Position numbers and translations under genes: made by a program
Source of the DNA: a virus
Reading direction: 5' to 3' (one strand)
DNA: 9,917 bases
UHGV virus genome: UHGV-0207821
The notes under the pieces: model-generated
Databases searched by the model: none
Told to the model about the DNA's origin: nothing
What the model saw: the letters and a program-made list of their open reading frames with translations, nothing else
Shown: positions 818 to 9,917 of the stretch, one piece after another
Layout of the letters: each line of letters begins with the position of its first letter
How positions within the stretch are numbered: position 1 is the first letter of the stretch

Positions 818-1201
818 TCAACCAATCAGCTTATAGCGACCATCCCGTGCATTGCGACGTACACGCTCAATCTTGAGGCATAGCGCCGCATCTGGCTTTT
901 TGGGGACAGGTACGCGGCAATATTCAGAAGCTCGAGGAATATTGTTTATCCAGTCGATCACTTCACTTAAATACCAGGCTTTACGCCCTTCCGTAACCTG
1001 TACGCGTTCGGGGAACTCTCCACGAGCCTCAAGGTTTAGCAATGTGCGACGGCTAAGGGTAGTAAGTTCCATCACCTGATTCATATCAACAAGGCGTTCA
1101 CTTAAACGCATTTTGTCAGCAATAGCCTTTAATTCCTCTACTGCTGGATCCGGATACATCATTTCGGCAATTGGCTTAAGGTCATTGTAATGATTCTGCA
1201 T
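818..1201 (-). CDS. AlpA/MerR-like helix-turn-helix DNA-binding protein, function unknown
   Basis: Central motif MELTTLSRRTLLNLEARGEFPERVQVTEGRKAWYLSEVIDWINN has the AlpA/excisionase-type HTH pattern. ATG at 1201 is preceded by AGGGGGA. Lies between the gpD-like gene and cos. Confidence 0.7.
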   Translation of the reverse strand: MQNHYNDLKPIAEMMYPDPAVEELKAIADKMRLSERLVDMNQVMELTTLSRRTLLNLEARGEFPERVQVTEGRKAWYLSEVIDWINNIPRASEYCRVPVPKKPDAALCLKIERVRRNARDGRYKLIG

Positions 1202-2610: not shown

Positions 2611-2777
2611 CCTCTTTACATTCATTACAAATAATTGTGAATATATTCTATTACCGATGTCTGCTATGCGAATACATGCAAACAAGTGCAATGTTGTATA
2701 AAATATGCCGTGACAACTTCAGTGCTGATAATTCGTGTTAATGTATTTACTTCCTTTGGTCGGGATTTATGTAGCAT

Positions 2778-2810
2778 GCCGGAAAATCTATTTTTTTCCG
2801 GCATCTTTTT
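2778..2810 (+). terminator. GC hairpin with T-run in the ssb to capsid intergenic region
   Basis: GCCGGAAAA (2778-2786) pairs with TTTTCCGGC (2794-2802), followed by ATCTTTTTGTTT. The T-run is on the plus strand, so it is a weaker fit as terminator of the minus-strand ssb operon. Confidence 0.3.
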
Positions 2811-2821
2811 GTTTGCAGAAT

Positions 2822-3244
2822 TTAAAACGGTATATTATCGCCGTACGGATCATCATTCCCCGACTGTTGTTTTGCCCTGTTCAGTGCGTCAGTGGCCTGC
2901 CCCTGCTGACCTTTTTTGCCGCCCGGTCGCGCCGTTCGCGCACTGATTACGCTGTCTGCGATAACCTGCCAGCCCCGCCGCGTTTCGCCGTTCTGGCCTG
3001 TCCACTGGCTTACCTGCATGTTACCCGCCACGCTCAGGAGTTCACCCTTGCGGTGCTTTGCCAGTGCTTCGGCCTGTCTGCCAAACGCCAGGACGGATAA
3101 CCACATCGTCGCCGTTCCGTCATCTGCCTGGCTGCACGGAAGTGGGACCGCCATACTCGCCATCGTCATTTGTGTACCCTTGCTGGTGGTCTTTAACTGC
3201 GGGTCAGCCACCAGCCGCCCGTAAGCCGCTATCTGTGCTGTCAT
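2822..3244 (-). CDS. ssb: Single-stranded DNA-binding protein (SSB), short form
   Basis: OB-fold region resembles E. coli SSB (QIAAYGRLVADPQLK vs KVILVGNLGQDPEVR; WLSVLAFGRQAEALA vs WHRVVLFGKLAEVAS). Gly/Gln-rich linker and acidic C-terminal tip DDPYGDNIPF (cf. DFDDDIPF). ATGA start/stop overlap with the upstream gene. Confidence 0.85.
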   Translation of the reverse strand: MTAQIAAYGRLVADPQLKTTSKGTQMTMASMAVPLPCSQADDGTATMWLSVLAFGRQAEALAKHRKGELLSVAGNMQVSQWTGQNGETRRGWQVIADSVISARTARPGGKKGQQGQATDALNRAKQQSGNDDPYGDNIPF

Positions 3245-3492
3245 GCTGTCTGCTCTCCGGTTTTAACGTTGATGGTTGTCACCTGTTCCGCTTCGGCAAT
3301 CTCCCGTTCTGTCAGTGTGGCAAAATTTGCCGCCGCCGTGGTCATGAATGCGCTTATCAGTTCGGGATGCGCTTTCGCGTATCCTTCTCCGGCGTGGCGG
3401 TCTATCGTTCTGATTGCCACCTTTAAGGCGTGCTCTGTCATGTCTAATGCGCGATATTTTGGTGCTGTTTTATCTCTGCTTTTTCTGGTCAT
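3241..3492 (-). CDS. Hypothetical protein
   Basis: ORF-track frame 3241-3522; start taken at internal ATG 3492 (MTRKSRDK...) so that it does not run over the iterons. Stop overlaps the ssb start (ATGA). Confidence 0.45.
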   Translation of the reverse strand: MTRKSRDKTAPKYRALDMTEHALKVAIRTIDRHAGEGYAKAHPELISAFMTTAAANFATLTEREIAEAEQVTTINVKTGEQTA

Positions 3493-3503
3493 TCCCCACC
3501 ACT

Positions 3504-3694
3504 CCCCACTTTTTCGCCTCACTTTTTAAGCTCCCCACATGATTTCCAACCTTGTTTTTTTGTGATTCTAATATGTTGTTTTTCAATGTGTTTTTTATTC
3601 CTCACTTTTGAGCCTATATACAGATTGAAAAGTGAGGGGCGCGGTTGCTTTTTGTTCAGTTCCTGCTATCCCCTCACTTTTGCGCCTCACTTTT
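3504..3694. repeat. Iteron array with AT-rich core, candidate replication origin
   Basis: CCTCACTTTT at 3517-3526, 3600-3609, 3672-3681, 3685-3694; variant CCCCACTTTT at 3504-3513; inverted copy AAAAGTGAGG at 3628-3637 forming a palindrome with the 3600 copy. T-rich stretch 3551-3599. Immediately 3' of the replication helicase gene. Confidence 0.55.
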
Positions 3695-5109
3695 TACAGT
3701 GGGCGCACATCATCACCGTCAATAGCGATAACGCCGTCTCTTTCCAGCTTGTACAGCCAGCGCCGGAAGTTTTTCATCTCATACCCCAGCTTTTTCATAT
3801 CATCGCGCAACAACGGGATAGTGCATTTATCGCCGCGCTGTGTGCGTGACCGGATACAGCCCCATAGTGCGGCGTGATTCTCCGTCTTGTTTCCGGCCTC
3901 CTCGATGCGCTCCAGTTCAACGGGTGGGCGCGGCTTATCCACAACCACCAGCGACGTGATTAACTCCTTGTCAGCGTCGGTAAAAAGCTCCACCACACGT
4001 AAATCATATGCAGCCTCTTTCAGTTCCTCCGCGTCCTTCATTTTGGTGCAGGAGATAACCAGGGCCTCACTGTCCGCGCCTTCGCGGCGGATCCGGTACT
4101 CAGCGTCCAGAGATGCACGAAATGCACTGGAACCACGCGCCCCTTTTGTTTCATCCTTGCCGGAATGGTGAACCACCAGCACCGTGGCCCCTGTGCGTCG
4201 TTTCAGTTCGTCACATCCACGGATAAACGCCCCCATATCCCGCGCGTCATTTTCATCATTACCGCCAAAGCAACGCGCCAGCGTATCCAGAATAATCATG
4301 CGTACCGGTTTACCCGTTTCCCGTTCAACCTGGCGGGATGCGATAACCATTTCATCAACATCAAACTGGGCTGCAGGAAAAATCGGGCGGTTTACCAGGT
4401 ACAGATTTTTCACCCGTTCATCATTAACGATTTCCCATGCCTTGATACGGCGGGGGACACCAATGCCACCTTCACCGACAACATACATCACCGAACCATG
4501 CGCCACCCTGCGACCTCCCCAGTGGCGACCCGTGGCAACATGACACGCCCAGGAACACGCGAGGAACGATTTATAGGAACCGCTCGCGCCGTATGTGCTG
4601 CACAATGAATTAGCCGGAATCACGCCCTTAACGACATAATCAAGCTGTGTGTCGTACCCTGCAGATCCAATGCTCATTGGTAGCGTGGTTTTTCGCTGGC
4701 TGTATTGCTCGTCAGTAAGTATTTCCCCGCGCTCTGCCTGTTCGCGGATCCGTTGCAGGTAGTCGTGCCAGTTCTCCAGCTTCTGACTGTGCATTCCCTC
4801 AGGGTAATAATTCGCATCCCGTACACCTGCCGCCGCCAGCTTTTGCCCGATGGCATTAATATTTGACGGCTTGATGTGGCCTGCCTTGTACAGTCGGACA
4901 CAATAGCGACCATCGTCGATAATTTTCAGGCCTGCCAGTTCGTCAAGCTGGCTGTCTCCCAGCCATACAGGCGGAACATTGTCGCCAGCAAGTCGCCCGT
5001 CCTGCTCCTGCCATTGTTTCGCGTGCGCCCAGGCATCACTACCCGCAAAAATAATGACTTCGGTCATTTTGTCGTAAGGCTGTTTTTTTAAGTTCGGTGC
5101 GCTTTTCAT
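3694..5109 (-). CDS. Replication initiation helicase, RepA/DnaB-like RecA-fold ATPase with C-terminal winged-helix domain
   Basis: 471 aa. Walker A-like YGASGSYKS, Walker B-like RMIILDT, then VLVVHHSGKD, typical of RepA-like (AAA_25) helicases. C-terminal LGYEMKNFRRWLYKLERDGVIAIDGDD looks winged-helix. SD AGGGG before ATG 5109; ATGA overlap with the upstream ORF. Confidence 0.8.
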   Translation of the reverse strand: MKSAPNLKKQPYDKMTEVIIFAGSDAWAHAKQWQEQDGRLAGDNVPPVWLGDSQLDELAGLKIIDDGRYCVRLYKAGHIKPSNINAIGQKLAAAGVRDANYYPEGMHSQKLENWHDYLQRIREQAERGEILTDEQYSQRKTTLPMSIGSAGYDTQLDYVVKGVIPANSLCSTYGASGSYKSFLACSWACHVATGRHWGGRRVAHGSVMYVVGEGGIGVPRRIKAWEIVNDERVKNLYLVNRPIFPAAQFDVDEMVIASRQVERETGKPVRMIILDTLARCFGGNDENDARDMGAFIRGCDELKRRTGATVLVVHHSGKDETKGARGSSAFRASLDAEYRIRREGADSEALVISCTKMKDAEELKEAAYDLRVVELFTDADKELITSLVVVDKPRPPVELERIEEAGNKTENHAALWGCIRSRTQRGDKCTIPLLRDDMKKLGYEMKNFRRWLYKLERDGVIAIDGDDVRPL

Positions 5110-5410: not shown

Positions 5411-5644
5411 TTATTCTCCGGTGTGCTGTTCTTTATATCTGTCGTGCAATAGATCTATTTCTTGCAGTTCCATTATTACAGGCTCAAGAAGCGTTATTAA
5501 TGCCGTGGCAATTCTTGATTTTTGTTTGTCGCGTTCATTGTCGCCAAGTGTTTCAAGCCATATGCGCAATATTTCCAGCATGTTTTCACTGTGAGAAAGT
5601 GCAAGAAATGCGCGGTCTATTGTTTCGTGGTAAATATCACGCAT
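5411..5644 (-). CDS. Hypothetical small protein
   Basis: 77-aa ORF in the same operon, 8-nt start/stop overlap with the upstream ORF. No recognisable motif. Confidence 0.5.
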   Translation of the reverse strand: MRDIYHETIDRAFLALSHSENMLEILRIWLETLGDNERDKQKSRIATALITLLEPVIMELQEIDLLHDRYKEQHTGE

Positions 5645-5870
5645 GGCTTACATCCTCAGGAAATTTTCTTCTGTAACGCGCCTCTGCCACATATTCCGCA
5701 TAATCGGCGGCGATATTCAGTACATCAAATCCCGTTGATTTATATTCTCTCGTGGAAAGTAAGAAAAAAGCCGCTCTAATAAGCTCTGGCATTGACGAAA
5801 GCGCATCAGCCGCATCATCAGGAACGCCGGAAAATTCCTGTTTCAGGGAATTAAAACGATCATCACGCAT
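5637..5870 (-). CDS. Hypothetical protein, downstream half of a possible poly-G frameshift pair
   Basis: 77-aa ORF whose ATG (5868-5870) lies 2 nt from a G9 tract on the coding strand; the upstream ORF ends just after the tract in another frame. Confidence 0.45.
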   Translation of the reverse strand: MRDDRFNSLKQEFSGVPDDAADALSSMPELIRAAFFLLSTREYKSTGFDVLNIAADYAEYVAEARYRRKFPEDVSHA

Positions 5871-6103
5871 AACCCCCCCCCATTTTCACAATCAGCAATC
5901 AGGATGGCTTTGGCCTCATTCAGCGCCATATCCGCACTAAGTTGCATAACCGCCAGCGAATGAGGAACGAAAGCCCCGGCATATTCTGTTTCACTGGTAG
6001 CGTGCTTATGCGCCCTGTCCGCGATAACAGAAATATCAATCGGCGCATCAATCAGTGTTTTGATTGCTTCGGCGGCTGCGTCCGGACGGGTGTTATTGCA
6101 CAT
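5843..6103 (-). CDS. Hypothetical protein, upstream half of a possible poly-G frameshift pair
   Basis: 86-aa ORF; the G9 tract encodes the GGG in ...ADCENGGGLCVMIVLIP near its C-terminus. A 10-G tract would fuse it in frame to the 5637-5870 ORF. Confidence 0.45.
   Translation of the reverse strand: MCNNTRPDAAAEAIKTLIDAPIDISVIADRAHKHATSETEYAGAFVPHSLAVMQLSADMALNEAKAILIADCENGGGLCVMIVLIP
5873..5881 (-). repeat. Homopolymeric G9 tract (C9 on plus strand) at the junction of two ORFs
   Basis: Nine consecutive C on the plus strand at 5873-5881, inside one ORF and directly upstream of the next ORF's ATG. Confidence 0.9.
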
Positions 6104-6461
6104 GGTGCACCTCCTGGCGAATACGGGCGGCGAATACCATCACGCAGCCAGCCGGGGATTGCTGACGTGCTTCCTGTTCGCTGGTGGCCTCGATGTGAAT
6201 CACGCGCGGTTGTGCCGTGCTCAGGGCGATAAAACGCCAGATAAAATTGTTCTCGCATTTCTGAATAAACAGCGTGTTTTCTTCGCGCCCTTTCCATGTT
6301 GCCGAGATATAGCCCATGTCATTGAGCATCTCGCAGGCATCCACCAGCGTATCAGCGGCTACGTGTACAGTGTTTTTACCGTCAGCCATGCAATCACGGT
6401 GCACCGCCAGGAAGGTGTATATAAATTTAGGGTGAGTTTGGGTATGCTGTGTTCCAGCCAT
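6093..6461 (-). CDS. Hypothetical protein, first gene of the leftward operon
   Basis: 122 aa from ATG 6461 (MAGTQHTQTHPKF...), SD GAGGT about 8 nt upstream. Normal amino-acid composition, unlike the junk-like translation further upstream in the same frame. Confidence 0.5.
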   Translation of the reverse strand: MAGTQHTQTHPKFIYTFLAVHRDCMADGKNTVHVAADTLVDACEMLNDMGYISATWKGREENTLFIQKCENNFIWRFIALSTAQPRVIHIEATSEQEARQQSPAGCVMVFAARIRQEVHHVQ

Positions 6462-6669
6462 AATCGTTACCTCATTTAACGGTTTGGTTAGAAGCCCGGT
6501 TAGTGTTCGCGCACTGCCGGGTTTCGTCGTTTTTATGAATCGCTCATTGTGAGATACATAGCGACCCCCATGTGAGATACACATTATATTGTGGTGATAT
6601 ACATTGCAAGTGTTTTTATATCTCACTTTTGTGTATAGTGATATACACATAACAAATTGGTGATTAACT
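6462..6669. promoter_or_regulatory. Divergent regulatory region with operator-like repeats
   Basis: Four same-orientation copies of GTGA(G/T)ATACA at 6549-6558, 6572-6581, 6593-6602, 6639-6648; inverted partial TATCTCAC at 6619-6626; palindrome GTGTATA-GTGA-TATACAC at 6631-6650 just upstream of the RHH gene. Lies between divergent gene starts at 6461 and 6670. Confidence 0.55.
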
Positions 6670-6972
6670 ATGTCTGTATACAAAAATGCAAAATCGCAAA
6701 TGACAACGATCAGGGTTCCCCACGATGTTATGGAGGGCATGGAATCCGTAAAACTGGACGGCGAAAGCAACGCCGGATTCATAGTAACCGCCATGCGCGG
6801 TGAGATCGCTCGCCGGCAGGCAGAAGGAAGAGGAGAAAATCCCTTGGTTTCTTCGCTCGATGCACTGGCGCAGGTGGAAAAAATCGGTGTCAAAGCAGCC
6901 GAGGAGATCGGGCAACTCGTCACCGTCGCGCGTGAAGAACTCCAGCGGCGCAAGGCCAAAGAACCAGAGTAA
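6670..6972 (+). CDS. Ribbon-helix-helix (CopG/Arc-like) transcriptional regulator, candidate element repressor
   Basis: N-terminal MTTIRVPHDVMEGMESVKLDGESNAGFIVTAMRGEIARRQ fits the RHH strand-helix-G-x-S-x-N-helix pattern. SD GGTGA 6 nt before ATG 6670. Charged, helical composition. Confidence 0.6.
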   Translation: MSVYKNAKSQMTTIRVPHDVMEGMESVKLDGESNAGFIVTAMRGEIARRQAEGRGENPLVSSLDALAQVEKIGVKAAEEIGQLVTVAREELQRRKAKEPE

Positions 6973-7029
6973 TCACCATCAGCGCCGTGGTGTAAGGTAT
7001 TACGGCGCATTGCTATGCAGGACAACACA

Positions 7030-7203
7030 ATGACCGATAAAGAATTGACCAAAACATTATCACCGGCACGGAAAAGACGGCGCAGAAAGATAGAGCATGA
7101 ATCAGAAAGATTCGCGCCATGTGCTTTTGCTCTTGAGAAATTCCTTAAAGAGCACAGGAAAAAGCTCTCGTTGCAAACCTTGGAACGAACCAAATCTGAC
7201 TGA
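7030..7203 (+). CDS. Small basic protein, hypothetical
   Basis: 57 aa from ATG 7030 (SD AGGA 7 nt upstream); very basic (RKRRRRK). Co-oriented with the RHH gene and followed by a terminator. ATG 7015 is an alternative start. Confidence 0.4.
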   Translation: MTDKELTKTLSPARKRRRRKIEHESERFAPCAFALEKFLKEHRKKLSLQTLERTKSD

Positions 7204-7676
7204 TCACATTGCCCACCAGCCGCAAATGTGGCATTGTTGGTGATGCTCATGCGTTGGGGATAACGTGTAGCTTGTGTCGAGGGGCCACCGTAGCGGGTGG
7301 CCTTTGTTTTGCCTGTTATCCGGCAATTGTGGCGCTTCGCCACACGGTTGATATAATCCCACTGCTCAGATTCATTTTTTGCGCAGTAGGTTAATTGTTC
7401 ACAAAGGCGCTCCGGCAACGGGGCGCTTTTTGTTTTTATTAGTTTGTAGAAACCTGACTCAGAGATAATGCTCATATTCTGATTGCCGTCAGGGGGGTAA
7501 GTTAAATTTACTCCCTTTTCATCAAGCATCTGCAACGCTCTGGCGTTAATAATATTGGTTTCACTCCCGCCAATAAGGCCGGAAATAACCGGAATAATTT
7601 CAGCGAAATTTTGCAGATTCTGGTTTTCAGGCCGAACGAAGCCCCGCCCCTGTACAGGCGTATATCCAGTATTCAT
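7204..7676 (-). CDS. Possible Bro-N/antirepressor-like protein; 3' end undefined because the frame has no stop until 6093
   Basis: N-terminal ~125 aa from ATG 7676 look protein-like; NMSIISESGFYKLIKTKSAP resembles the Bro-N/antirepressor signature (weak, from memory). Beyond about 7300 the translation turns Cys/Ser-rich and runs antisense through the RHH operon and the operator region. The 7204 end is arbitrary. Confidence 0.3.
7283..7310 (+). terminator. Rho-independent terminator of the plus-strand regulator operon
   Basis: GGCCACC (7283-7289), loop GTAGCG, GGTGGCC (7296-7302), then TTTGTTTT (7303-7310). Confidence 0.55.
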
Positions 7677-7728
7677 GGTTAAATCTCTGTATTAGTGGAT
7701 GGGTGGCGGCTGTGTGCCGCCAGCCTGA

Positions 7729-7917
7729 TTAGTGAACTGCCTCGCGGCTGTCCTTCCATGCCAGAACTTCGGATAAAGACCAGCCAACGGAACGACCACC
7801 GAGTTTACGCCGTGATGGGAATTGTCCAGTCTTCTCCAGGCGATACCGACATGAGCGGCTCAGGCCTGTAAGTTGCTGACATTCTTTTTCACGTATAAAG
7901 CGATCTGTGCTTAACAC
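7729..7917 (-). CDS. alpA: AlpA-family (excisionase/Vis-like) transcriptional regulator
   Basis: LSTDRFIREKECQQLTGLSRSCRYRLEKTGQFPSRRKLGGRSVGWSLSEVLAWKD is a classic AlpA HTH. Start proposed at GTG 7917, preceded by AAAGGGGGA. The ORF-track ATG at 8025 would add a low-complexity T/N/P-rich extension. Confidence 0.7.
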   Translation of the reverse strand: MLSTDRFIREKECQQLTGLSRSCRYRLEKTGQFPSRRKLGGRSVGWSLSEVLAWKDSREAVH

Positions 7918-8285
7918 AATTCCCCCTTTGTTGTTTCTTAAAGAGTCATTGGGTGGATTATTGGGTTGGGTTGTGTCGGATTGTGTCAGGGTGTTTATGG
8001 AATGGCAAACACTGGTGGCGGTCATTTTACAGAAGTGGGGGTAGTGAGAATAAAAATCCTTTTAATTCATTATGATGTAAAGGCATAAAATTCTGTTTTT
8101 ACGCCTTTTTTACATGTTTTTAAGAGTGATTCGCCAATGTACAAAAAGCCAGTAAAACGACTGAAAATCAACTTTTTAGGGTGTCAGTCAGATGATAATC
8201 AAGTTTGTTCCAGATTGTTCGCCGTTGTTCGTCGTGGTGTCTCGTTGTTTCACGTTGTGTCCGTTCTAAAAAATCGCAAAAAAAA

Positions 8286-9533
8286 TTATATTTCTCTGGC
8301 TATTGGCAGTGTGGTTACGTTTTCGTGAGTGCCTGCCAGTATCTCTAACCGCTCTGTCCACATGTCCAGCGCATTACGTTTCGCATCGAGATAACGGGAG
8401 TGGTTATAGACTCGCTGCATCCCTGGCATCTGGTGAGCGGTGAGTTGTTCGACAATATGCGGATCCACGCCTAAATCGTTCAGCATCGTGGTAAACGTGC
8501 GCCGTATATCGTGTAGTGACCAGTGCGGATGGTTTAATTTTTTGTGCATGAATCTGCCGTATTGCGACACACTGGCTTCCTGTTTCAGTTCCCCGAGTAA
8601 TAGCCCTGTGTGTCTGTTCTGCTCCACCAGCTGCGTGACGAACGGTAAAATGCTTTCCGGTATTGGCCTGAATATGGCGACCTTCGTTTTGCTGTGCTCT
8701 TTCGGTACTGTCCAGAGCATTTCCTTAAAATCCCACTCCCTGATCTCCGATAATCTCAGTTCTCCGGTTCGGCAGCCGAACACAATCAGGAGGCGGATTA
8801 GTGCGCTGTAGTAGGGCGGGAATATTTTTTTATCCAGCGCCTGTAATAATTCGCCAAGTTCTTTGTTGCTCAGCACGCGTTCGCTTATGCCTGGTTTTTT
8901 GCCAACGTCCACCACGTTAAGATCATCCAGAACGTTACTGACTGCGTAGCGACGTTTACGGCAGAACTTAAGCGCCTGTTTACACGCCTGCATCATGTGA
9001 CCAGACGTTACAGGGGATTTTTTGCGTATCCGGTCAAAACAGGCCAGCCAGTGACGTAACTCGCATTTATCCAGTGGCATATTGCCAATATGCTGTATGA
9101 CGTGATTATTCAGGCGGCTTTTCAGGCATACGTAATCGACACGGTTTTCCTTTACGTGCATTTCCAGCCAGTAGCTGATCGCATCACCCACCGTTACCGG
9201 CTTTAGTGCTTCCTGTATGGAGTAATTAAGCTCATGGCGTGGATTTTTTCCTTCTGCCAGCCATGCGCGACACTGTGCCGCTTTTTCCCTGGCTGCTTTC
9301 AGGCTCAGATCAGGATAATTTCCCAGCTTCAGGCGTTCCGGTGATACCTGGCGTCCAGCTCCTGCTCTGTAGGTGAAATACCAGGTTAACAAGCCGCTGG
9401 TGGAATGCCTGACGCTCAGGTTTCCACCGTCATTAAGAAATGTGGTTTTTGGGGCTGGTGTGCCGTTGATTTTTCTTAGCTGTGTATCGCTCAGTTTGTT
9501 AAGTGCTCTGCTCATAATTTTGAATCCGGTCAT
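8286..9533 (-). CDS. int: Tyrosine site-specific integrase, P4-family type
   Basis: N-terminal LSDTQLRKI...DGGNLSVRHS...LLTWYFTYR typical of P4-family integrases; C-terminal catalytic region with HDIRRTF and VYNHSRY (tyrosine nucleophile). ATG at 9533; the ORF track starts at GTG 9536, and ATG 9515 is also possible. Confidence 0.9.
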   Translation of the reverse strand: MTGFKIMSRALNKLSDTQLRKINGTPAPKTTFLNDGGNLSVRHSTSGLLTWYFTYRAGAGRQVSPERLKLGNYPDLSLKAAREKAAQCRAWLAEGKNPRHELNYSIQEALKPVTVGDAISYWLEMHVKENRVDYVCLKSRLNNHVIQHIGNMPLDKCELRHWLACFDRIRKKSPVTSGHMMQACKQALKFCRKRRYAVSNVLDDLNVVDVGKKPGISERVLSNKELGELLQALDKKIFPPYYSALIRLLIVFGCRTGELRLSEIREWDFKEMLWTVPKEHSKTKVAIFRPIPESILPFVTQLVEQNRHTGLLLGELKQEASVSQYGRFMHKKLNHPHWSLHDIRRTFTTMLNDLGVDPHIVEQLTAHQMPGMQRVYNHSRYLDAKRNALDMWTERLEILAGTHENVTTLPIAREI

Positions 9534-9538
9534 CACAA

Positions 9539-9779: not shown

Positions 9780-9873
9780 ACCGGCGCAGAGGAGACAATG
9801 CCGGATTTAAGACGCGGATGCACTGCTGTGTGTACTGTAGAGTCTGGCGGATGTCGACAGACTCTATTTTTTT
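9780..9873 (+). ncRNA. mcaS: About 94-nt sRNA with four GGA motifs, McaS(IsrA)-like
   Basis: Promoter-to-terminator unit with no ORF. 5' stem-loop CCGGC...GCCGG; GGA motifs in single-stranded or loop contexts (GAGGAGA, CCGGATT, GCGGATG twice); terminal hairpin plus U7. Sequence matches my recollection of E. coli McaS, a CsrA-binding sRNA; not verifiable here. Confidence 0.55.
9838..9873 (+). terminator. Rho-independent terminator of the sRNA
   Basis: TAGAGTCTG (9838-9846) pairs with CAGACTCTA (9858-9866); 11-nt loop containing GGA; followed by TTTTTTT (9867-9873). Confidence 0.7.
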
Positions 9874-9917
9874 ATGCAGTTTTAACTTTGCAGATAGCCG
9901 CATTCTCGCCGGAATTG

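Follow-up and report, generated by a model that had tools for sequence, protein, structure and literature searches.

UHGV-0207821 is a virus genome sequence, and the 9,917-nucleotide (nt) stretch of it analysed here (termed the window) is a P4-related, capsid-forming satellite of the phage-inducible chromosomal island (PICI) type, i.e. a phage-parasitic island, inserted beside abgR/McaS. The region between its alpA gene and its leftward operon is read here as a three-layer immunity/commitment switch, with a probability of roughly 0.55. The components are a ribbon-helix-helix (RHH) regulator with an array of operator boxes, a candidate antisense RNA over the start of an Icd/Kil-like gene, and a long stop-free frame that runs antisense through the regulator gene. 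A preliminary description of this DNA had proposed a repressor switch made of the boxes and the RHH protein. That proposal is supported below, but its suggestions for a small open reading frame (ORF) next to the RHH gene are not, and it had overlooked both the antisense RNA and the long frame. For comparison, 24 related loci of about eight genera were used; their sources are E. coli, Enterobacter, Klebsiella, Edwardsiella, Serratia, Erwinia, Xenorhabdus, Photorhabdus and, for one of the 24, a record labelled Martelella.

Four exact, co-oriented copies of the box GTGAKATACA are found on the plus strand at 6549, 6572, 6594 and 6638, between divergent gene starts at 6461 and 6670, and a palindrome is present at 6627–6652, all as previously described. 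A fifth, inverted box with one mismatch lies on the minus strand at 6617–6626. The array spans positions 6549–6647 with a spacing of 22–23 bp. There are six matches to GTGAKATACA in the window, compared with 0.81 expected, and none of 200 shuffled sequences reached six.

Two putative promoters are located within the array. The putative leftward promoter P_L (6581–6609, minus strand) has a −35 element TTGCAA at 6609–6604 and a −10 element that is either TAATGT at 6586–6581 (17-nt spacer) or TATAAT at 6588–6583 (15-nt spacer). For the RHH gene promoter, P_R, the putative −10 is TATAGT at 6634–6639 (plus strand). Box 1 (GTGAGATACA, 6549–6558) is downstream of the putative leftward transcription start, Box 2 (GTGAGATACA, 6572–6581) overlaps the putative −10/+1 of P_L, and Box 3 (GTGATATACA, 6594–6603) is in the P_L spacer beside the −35 element. 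Box 4, the inverted box (GTGAGATATA, 6617–6626), falls in the P_R spacer; Box 5 (GTGATATACA, 6638–6647) overlaps the P_R −10/+1 and is part of the palindrome. When the intergenic regions of 13 loci with nine RHH types are aligned, TCAA is invariant, as is TTTT three columns further on, and these are flanked by boxes that are specific to the type. The TCAA element reads GTCAAG in most of the 13 rows (a −35 of TTGAC on the minus strand) and TGCAAG in the window (TTGCAA). Nine of the 13 loci, with the others diverging, have a GTATAnTG-like motif some 30 nt upstream of the ATG of the RHH gene; in the window it reads GTATAGTG.

The RHH regulator is encoded at positions 6670–6972 (plus strand) and has a chain length of 100 amino acids (aa). 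It belongs to the YlcI/YnfO family, with a score of 71.2 bits to NF041551 (YlcI/YnfO N-terminal domain) where the cut-off is 30. The protein displays an N-terminal arm and beta-strand at residues 2–16, helices at 18–27 and 34–52, and a conserved C-terminal helix at 58–97; a strand-helix-helix fold of about 45 residues is present. In the predicted monomer structure the beta-strand region is unstructured, and HMMER profiles searched against PDB sequences gave no RHH match to the 100-aa protein. A search of Pfam yielded only a sub-threshold match to PSK_trans_fac, an RHH antitoxin family, and a literature search for YlcI/YnfO/DUF3950 found no functional description. The RHH gene is matched in 453 of 5426 complete E. 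coli genomes, and related modules are present in Klebsiella, Enterobacter, Edwardsiella, Serratia, Erwinia, Xenorhabdus and Photorhabdus. The conserved C-terminal half also contains a helix-hairpin-helix (HhH)-like motif, LAQVEKIGVKAAEEI (residues 56–87, window positions 6835–6930), which gives a weak profile match to the Hef HhH domain (E-value = 0.022). This motif may provide an oligomerisation surface or a second DNA contact.

An alignment of 21 RHH homologues has a mean column identity of 75%. Variation is concentrated in residues 2–5 and 11–14, i.e. in the arm and strand, where no column is invariant; scattered changes are found along the remainder of the protein as well. The residues of the arm and strand correspond to the boxes. 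Proteins of type MTTI are found with the box GTGAKATACA, type LTTV (E. coli, Xenorhabdus, Photorhabdus) with GTGTGTTTCA, type LFTV (Serratia, locus L008) with the shorter core GTGTTTCA, and type SLTA (Enterobacter, Klebsiella, Edwardsiella, Escherichia) with GTGTAAGW. Type ALAA goes with GTGTAAACA, type QLNA with GGTATTCA, and type xKNx (LKNI, VKNV) with GTGTGTATTTA. Because the boxes of the 24 loci follow the arm and strand residues of the RHH protein, and neither AlpA nor the replication module, the RHH protein is the favoured operator binder. It probably binds the boxes and represses the leftward promoter. The suggestion of a repressor/operator switch governing the leftward operon, with the RHH protein as its likely binder, is therefore strengthened by the fold and by a correspondence that holds across genera.

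Another component is an eta-like frame on the minus strand (6093–7676), which is stop-free for 527 codons, from 53 nt downstream of alpA to the end of Icd/Kil. It begins with a Bro-N remnant (about 7300–7676, minus strand) that lies between alpA and the switch region, then crosses the small ORF, the RHH gene and the operators in antisense orientation and finishes in frame as Icd/Kil. The latter, a 122-aa Icd/Kil-like gene (6093–6461, minus strand; NF033153 phage_ICD_like, E-value = 1e-22), is the first gene of the leftward operon. Among the minus-strand frames, the long frame is the one that shares its wobble positions with the RHH gene. It is stop-free for 714–1599 nt in 18 of the 20 distinct loci tabulated, which span at least nine sequence types, and the open stretch takes in all of the operator region as well as the RHH gene and what lies to its right. 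Per 200–300 nt of non-coding sequence, 0–14 stops (mostly 2–8) are found in the other five frames, compared with none or one in the eta-like frame. Within the RHH gene, the codons that precede CAx have G as their third base 53 times, C 36 times, A 38 times and T not once in 127, while T occupies 22% of the other codons; a T before CAx would create a stop in the antisense frame. The frame was first assumed to be a chance occurrence, and this was given up on the stop counts across loci and the absence of T before CAx. To judge from these sequence comparisons, the minus-strand frame is kept open by selection.

The beginning and end of the frame were compared in 17 loci. Its first start codon is preceded by a Shine-Dalgarno-like motif in 11, and in most it starts no more than 53 nt from the stop of an upstream alpA, Bro-N or Ant-like gene, with five overlaps of 1 to 8 nt. 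In 13 loci the frame and the Icd-like gene share a phase; in the other four the frame meets a stop 10–20 nt before the Icd-like start. The “possible antirepressor” of the preliminary description is a truncated Bro-N remnant, fused in frame to the longer frame. In L002 of the comparison set (positions 5500–6300) a full 266-aa AntA/AntB gene is followed by a separate start for the long frame. As to how the regulator is connected with AlpA, a question that had been left open, the passage of the long frame from the alpA side through the switch is offered as an answer.

Public annotation holds an independent trace of this frame. In L027 (positions 2677–3156, minus strand) RefSeq/PGAP lists a partial “Icd-like protein” pseudogene, missing its C-terminus, that overlaps an oppositely oriented YlcI/YnfO gene. 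Repeated peptide-coding units, e.g. SLGGYPIISGWL, are present to the right of the RHH gene in Xenorhabdus and Photorhabdus loci (L004–L011, about 3300–3900, minus frame). They look like inserted DNA repeats, and the frame is still stop-free there.

The Icd/Kil-like gene of the window is 122 aa long, compared with 63–68 aa in most relatives. Its N-terminal motif THPKFIYTFLAV has a copy-like NFIWRFIAL about 55 residues later, followed by the full Kil domain. This suggests that the window gene is chimeric or partly duplicated.

The remaining component is a candidate cis-antisense small RNA of about 80 nt (6456–6535, plus strand), identified by its fold, by covariation and with a covariance model. 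Hairpin 1 (6456–6489) carries an anti-Shine-Dalgarno CCUC in its loop (6470–6473). It is followed by a conserved linker, GGUUAGA, a G+C-rich terminator hairpin (6491–6525) and a U-rich tail. Every locus keeps a plus-strand element of this kind between the Icd-like start and the boxes, with a hairpin 1 that carries or adjoins CCUC. The candidate RNA would be antisense to the kil/icd ribosome site and would start 6 nt inside kil/icd. Its putative promoter has a −10 of TATGCT (6443–6448, plus strand), 7 nt before the predicted +1 at A6456; a second group of loci shows a TG-extended −10.

The fold of 6456–6537 has a minimum free energy of −33.8 kcal/mol (z = −6.0). In an alignment of 16 loci, 93.8% of cells are paired and 12 of the 17 pairs show changes on both sides; when the registers of the alignment are slid, pairing is 34%–45%. 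The covariation score is 0.453 as against 0.175 in shuffles, none of 500 of which reaches 0.453. The RNA is assigned to the plus strand because G·U pairs are almost confined to that fold (30, compared with one when the minus strand is folded). A covariance model (R1) finds exactly one match per locus, at 62–92 bits. The same model has no match in P4, and a search of Rfam gave no C4/CI or isrK match at E-values up to 1.

The target of the candidate RNA belongs to the family of P4 Kil, which is reported to function in cell killing (PMC10111431). For this reason the antisense RNA and Kil/Icd resemble, by analogy, a type I toxin-antitoxin pair built into the switch.

The closest known system of this architecture is SymR/SymE of E. 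coli K-12. SymR likewise is an antisense RNA of about 77–80 nt with two hairpins and a terminator, and it has a small growth-inhibiting target; it starts 6 nt inside symE, with the same −10/+1 geometry as the window candidate. The window target however is Kil/Icd and not SymE, and the parallel is one of architecture, not of membership. The Rfam model of SymR (RF01809) scores 35.7 bits at 6456–6528, below its gathering score of 61, and R1 does not retrieve K-12 symR; assignment to the SymR family was dropped on these results. The terminator loop GUGUUCGCGCAC (window positions 6502–6515) is identical at 11 of 12 positions to GUGUUGGCGCAC of K-12 symR (L026, 7886–7899), a likeness that could reflect distant common origin or convergence.

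The proposed mechanism is as follows. Back-to-back promoters at 6581–6639 would serve the kil/icd-replication-packaging operon leftward (P_L) and the RHH gene rightward (P_R), and the five RHH boxes, two helical turns apart, would cover both. While the island is quiescent, oligomers of RHH bound on one side of the helix would keep P_L repressed and also autoregulate P_R. Translation of Kil/Icd on leaky P_L transcripts would be blocked by a constitutive cis-antisense RNA (about 80 nt) with its anti-Shine-Dalgarno in a loop, and the untranslated leader would then be exposed to Rho-dependent termination, by analogy with P4. When a helper phage turns on alpA, transcripts from the alpA side would enter the 527-codon frame, which has no stop until the end of kil/icd. 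Ribosomes elongating through this frame would need no initiation at the blocked kil/icd site and could shield the transcript from Rho. This leftward traffic would cross the RHH gene head-on and should silence RHH as well. Replication and packaging genes would then be on irrespective of immunity.

The nearest precedent is the immunity region of P4, with its nested eta/kil genes beside vis, the promoter PLE and the CI RNA. In P4, vis (an AlpA homologue) is at positions 8764–9030 and eta, of 199 aa, is at 8767–8168, abutting vis. By our own count on the translation, Kil corresponds to the last 65 residues of Eta, as Forti and co-workers reportedly described in 1999. NF033153 is common to the window Icd/Kil (E-values of 1e-22 to 6e-21) and P4 Kil (E-value = 1.6e-21). 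The homology with P4 Kil rests on this common NCBIfam model, since a tblastn search of phage genomes with the Icd-like protein did not reach P4. The two regions are alike in having an AlpA/Vis-type gene upstream, abutting a long ORF that contains the early promoter and has a Kil/Icd end; as in P4, the window has a longer in-frame ORF that begins upstream of the (putative) early promoter next to the vis/alpA gene.

According to PMC10111431 (citing Forti et al. 1999), the early promoter of P4 is inside eta, its transcript is terminated under immunity, and Kil is translated only on read-through. Translation of full-length Eta, by the same account, requires transcripts from the late promoter upstream and is coupled to the alpA homologue; it prevents termination and so overrides immunity (PMC10111431).

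There are also differences from P4. The Ash domain (PF10554), which is found in P4 Eta (E-value = 4e-23), has no match in the window ORF or in three relatives, and the window has no C4/CI or isrK RNA. Instead, a divergent RHH gene with operators is embedded in antisense within its long ORF, and where P4 has a processed RNA of the same strand the window has a candidate cis-antisense one. By this comparison the region appears to be a variant of the P4-type immunity region, in which immunity would come from the RHH repressor and the cis-antisense RNA.

RHH repressors that act on repeat arrays are known, e.g. omega of pSM19035, Arc and CopG. The window protein differs in having a further half, C-terminal, helical and conserved. 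In the known cases the sites are contiguous heptads or half-sites 11 bp apart, whereas the window boxes (as putative sites) are about 22 bp apart. The gene content of Gram-negative PICIs such as EcCICFT073 and EcCIEDL933 is similar to that of the window (int, alpA, Bro zone, replication, capsid and terS), but a module of RHH gene, operators and antisense RNA is unmentioned in the accounts of these islands that were consulted. AlpA is the activator of Gram-negative PICIs (PMC6092414); it is the only regulator described there, and the global repressor is called unclear (PMC6092414). A search of the PICI literature found no functional account of an RHH protein or an antisense RNA, nor any description of the combination of an RHH repressor of exchangeable specificity, a cis-antisense RNA directed at kil/icd and an eta-like frame held open antisense across both. 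The single elements do have precedents, namely switches of repressor and operator, repressors of the RHH class and the eta/kil logic of P4.

Several observations weigh against the three-layer switch. A scan for consensus promoters found none in 6462–6670, and P_L, P_R and the RNA promoter are proposed on conserved hexamer-like elements only. The residues that define the RHH type are encoded within about 50 bp of the boxes, and linkage may explain some of the correspondence. Types MTTI and LTTV differ in the strand by M/L and I/V only (plus changes in the arm), yet their boxes are quite different. The part of the long frame that overlaps the RHH gene is open by chance in 15%–85% of synonymous permutations, depending on the locus, and two loci, L009 and L012, have 6–7 stops in the frame. 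Neither of these has an alpA match to the right of the RHH gene; the only alpA-like match of L009 is on the other side, and L012 has ORFs to the right of the RHH gene that by eye resemble IS transposases. In the window itself, 53 nt separate alpA from the frame, whose ribosome site is weak and whose first part is the remnant of a gene.

One alternative is a plain divergent repressor-operator switch, as proposed in the preliminary description: the RHH protein would control the leftward operon, the hairpins would only insulate transcription and the antisense frame would be without function. Such a switch would account for the boxes, the fold of the RHH protein and the type correspondence, and the permutation result agrees with it. 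It would not explain why 18 of 20 loci have exactly one frame of six without stops in their non-coding stretches, nor the lack of T at all 127 sites of potential antisense stops, nor a frame that has conserved ribosome sites and abuts the upstream gene. It is also at odds with an RNA that has compensatory changes in 12 of 17 pairs and a strand-specific G·U pattern. We regard the plain switch as unlikely.

Another explanation is that the long ORF matters through its product, a full-length Eta-like protein with a Kil/Icd C-terminus that would act as a late-phase effector. In P4, Eta (199 aa, with an Ash domain and ending in Kil) does exist as a protein, and the PGAP entry in L027, a partial Icd-like protein overlapping the RHH gene, is in accordance with this. 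The middle of the frame however has no Pfam or NCBIfam family match. It is Ser/Ala/Thr-rich, of an antisense type, is wholly different between lineages and tolerates inserted repeats, and in four of 17 loci the frame ends just before the kil/icd start, unfused. A role through the protein product is thus rather improbable.

The boxes could also be taken for iterons of a replication origin or for binding sites of AlpA; evenly spaced direct repeats (22 bp) resemble iterons, and AlpA activates PICI genes. The comparison of loci shows that the boxes track neither the replication module nor AlpA, and both readings were rejected. SLTA boxes are found with RepA-helicase and also with Toprim/DUF927 replication modules. 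The window and its E. coli relative L001 have AlpA proteins that are 90% identical and different boxes, and the window and L002 have the same boxes with AlpA proteins of 32% identity. In addition, the PICI ori is reported to be downstream of the primase gene (PMC10111431). Both readings are accordingly very improbable.

A small basic ORF of 57 aa (57/62 aa) follows the RHH gene at 7030–7203 (plus strand), with the conserved core ERFAPCAFALEKFLKE, and a terminator is found at 7280–7305; the presence of both had been correctly noted. The ORF has similarity to phrog_21027 (E-value = 2e-14). Its relatives form 51 clusters, all in Escherichia/Shigella, which have the core ERFAPCAFALEKFLKE in common and show in-frame length differences. 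In other genera, a tblastn search of the ten loci, which keep the rest of the module, yielded no homologue. All ten have an RHH protein with a conserved C-terminal half, and some have other short plus-strand ORFs after the RHH gene. The 57-aa sequence has no match in Pfam, NCBIfam or PADLOC, and PADLOC likewise found nothing for the RHH protein, the Icd-like protein or the Bro-N remnant. Given this distribution, the small basic protein may be a real accessory protein, restricted to one lineage, rather than a general partner of the regulator. The earlier proposals that it is a co-repressor, a Cro-like factor or the partner of an RHH antitoxin are not sustained. That the RHH gene and this ORF form a type II toxin-antitoxin or Cro-like pair would fit the gene order (RHH first, small basic protein second) and the weak PSK_trans_fac matches, but this reading was rejected as scarcely credible, since the ORF is confined to Escherichia/Shigella with no conserved co-occurrence, the ten other loci keep the RHH gene without a tblastn homologue of it, and the databases named give no match.

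The terminator at 7280–7305 (plus strand) is a predicted intrinsic terminator of the rightward unit and appears to be unidirectional because there is no U run on the minus strand. A second terminator-like hairpin is found at 7403–7430 (plus strand). Between alpA and the Icd-like gene (6462–7700) a terminator search found two or three terminators on the plus strand and none on the minus strand.

The remaining genes of the island are arranged as follows. A full-length McaS/IsrA small RNA is found at 9780–9875 (plus strand) with the Rfam model (118 bits, E-value = 3e-22), which points to an insertion beside abgR in an Escherichia-like chromosome. int (8286–9536) and alpA (7729–8025; PF05930, E-value = 9e-18) are on the minus strand, with alpA directly upstream of the eta-like frame. 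Beyond the Icd-like gene, the leftward order on the minus strand is several small ORFs, a DUF4222 gene and a RepA-type helicase (3694–5109), and then SSB, major capsid, decoration protein, a helix-turn-helix (HTH) gene and terS. The same RefSeq annotation is found for the corresponding genes of the E. coli relative L001.

The sole consensus promoter-like site in positions 6000–8200 is at 7980–8008 (minus strand): TTGCCA, a 17-nt spacer and a TG-extended CACAAT. Although inside the long alpA ORF call, this site is upstream of the shorter alpA start given by RefSeq for L001, and for this reason it is a candidate promoter of alpA. A second AlpA-like gene is the HTH gene of the late region (818–1201, minus strand), which is flanked by the decoration gene and terS and has 35% identity to alpA over 51 residues. 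Between terS and this gene there is a near-perfect hairpin of 87 nt (638–724), which matched “mir-3910” on both strands, a family name that is due to chance. A bidirectional terminator is one possible role for it, a site related to packaging another.

A more general proposal, put forward tentatively and as one that may well not hold, is that many Gram-negative PICIs have an RHH master repressor of exchangeable specificity, whose gene and operators are overprinted antisense in an Eta-like frame. Induction would consist of ribosomes driven from the alpA side through the repressor gene, the operators and the antisense-blocked ribosome site, and the bidirectionally coded DNA itself would be the bistable element.

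The module is a concrete, testable candidate for the missing repressor half of the Gram-negative PICI switch. It would extend the translation-override principle of P4 eta/kil to a different immunity chemistry, and it provides a clean natural example of antisense overlapping coding held open by selection. Exchangeable types of RHH strand and box would predict immunity groups among satellites, and such groups bear on the ecology of satellites and their helpers and on the engineering of PICI-based delivery vehicles.

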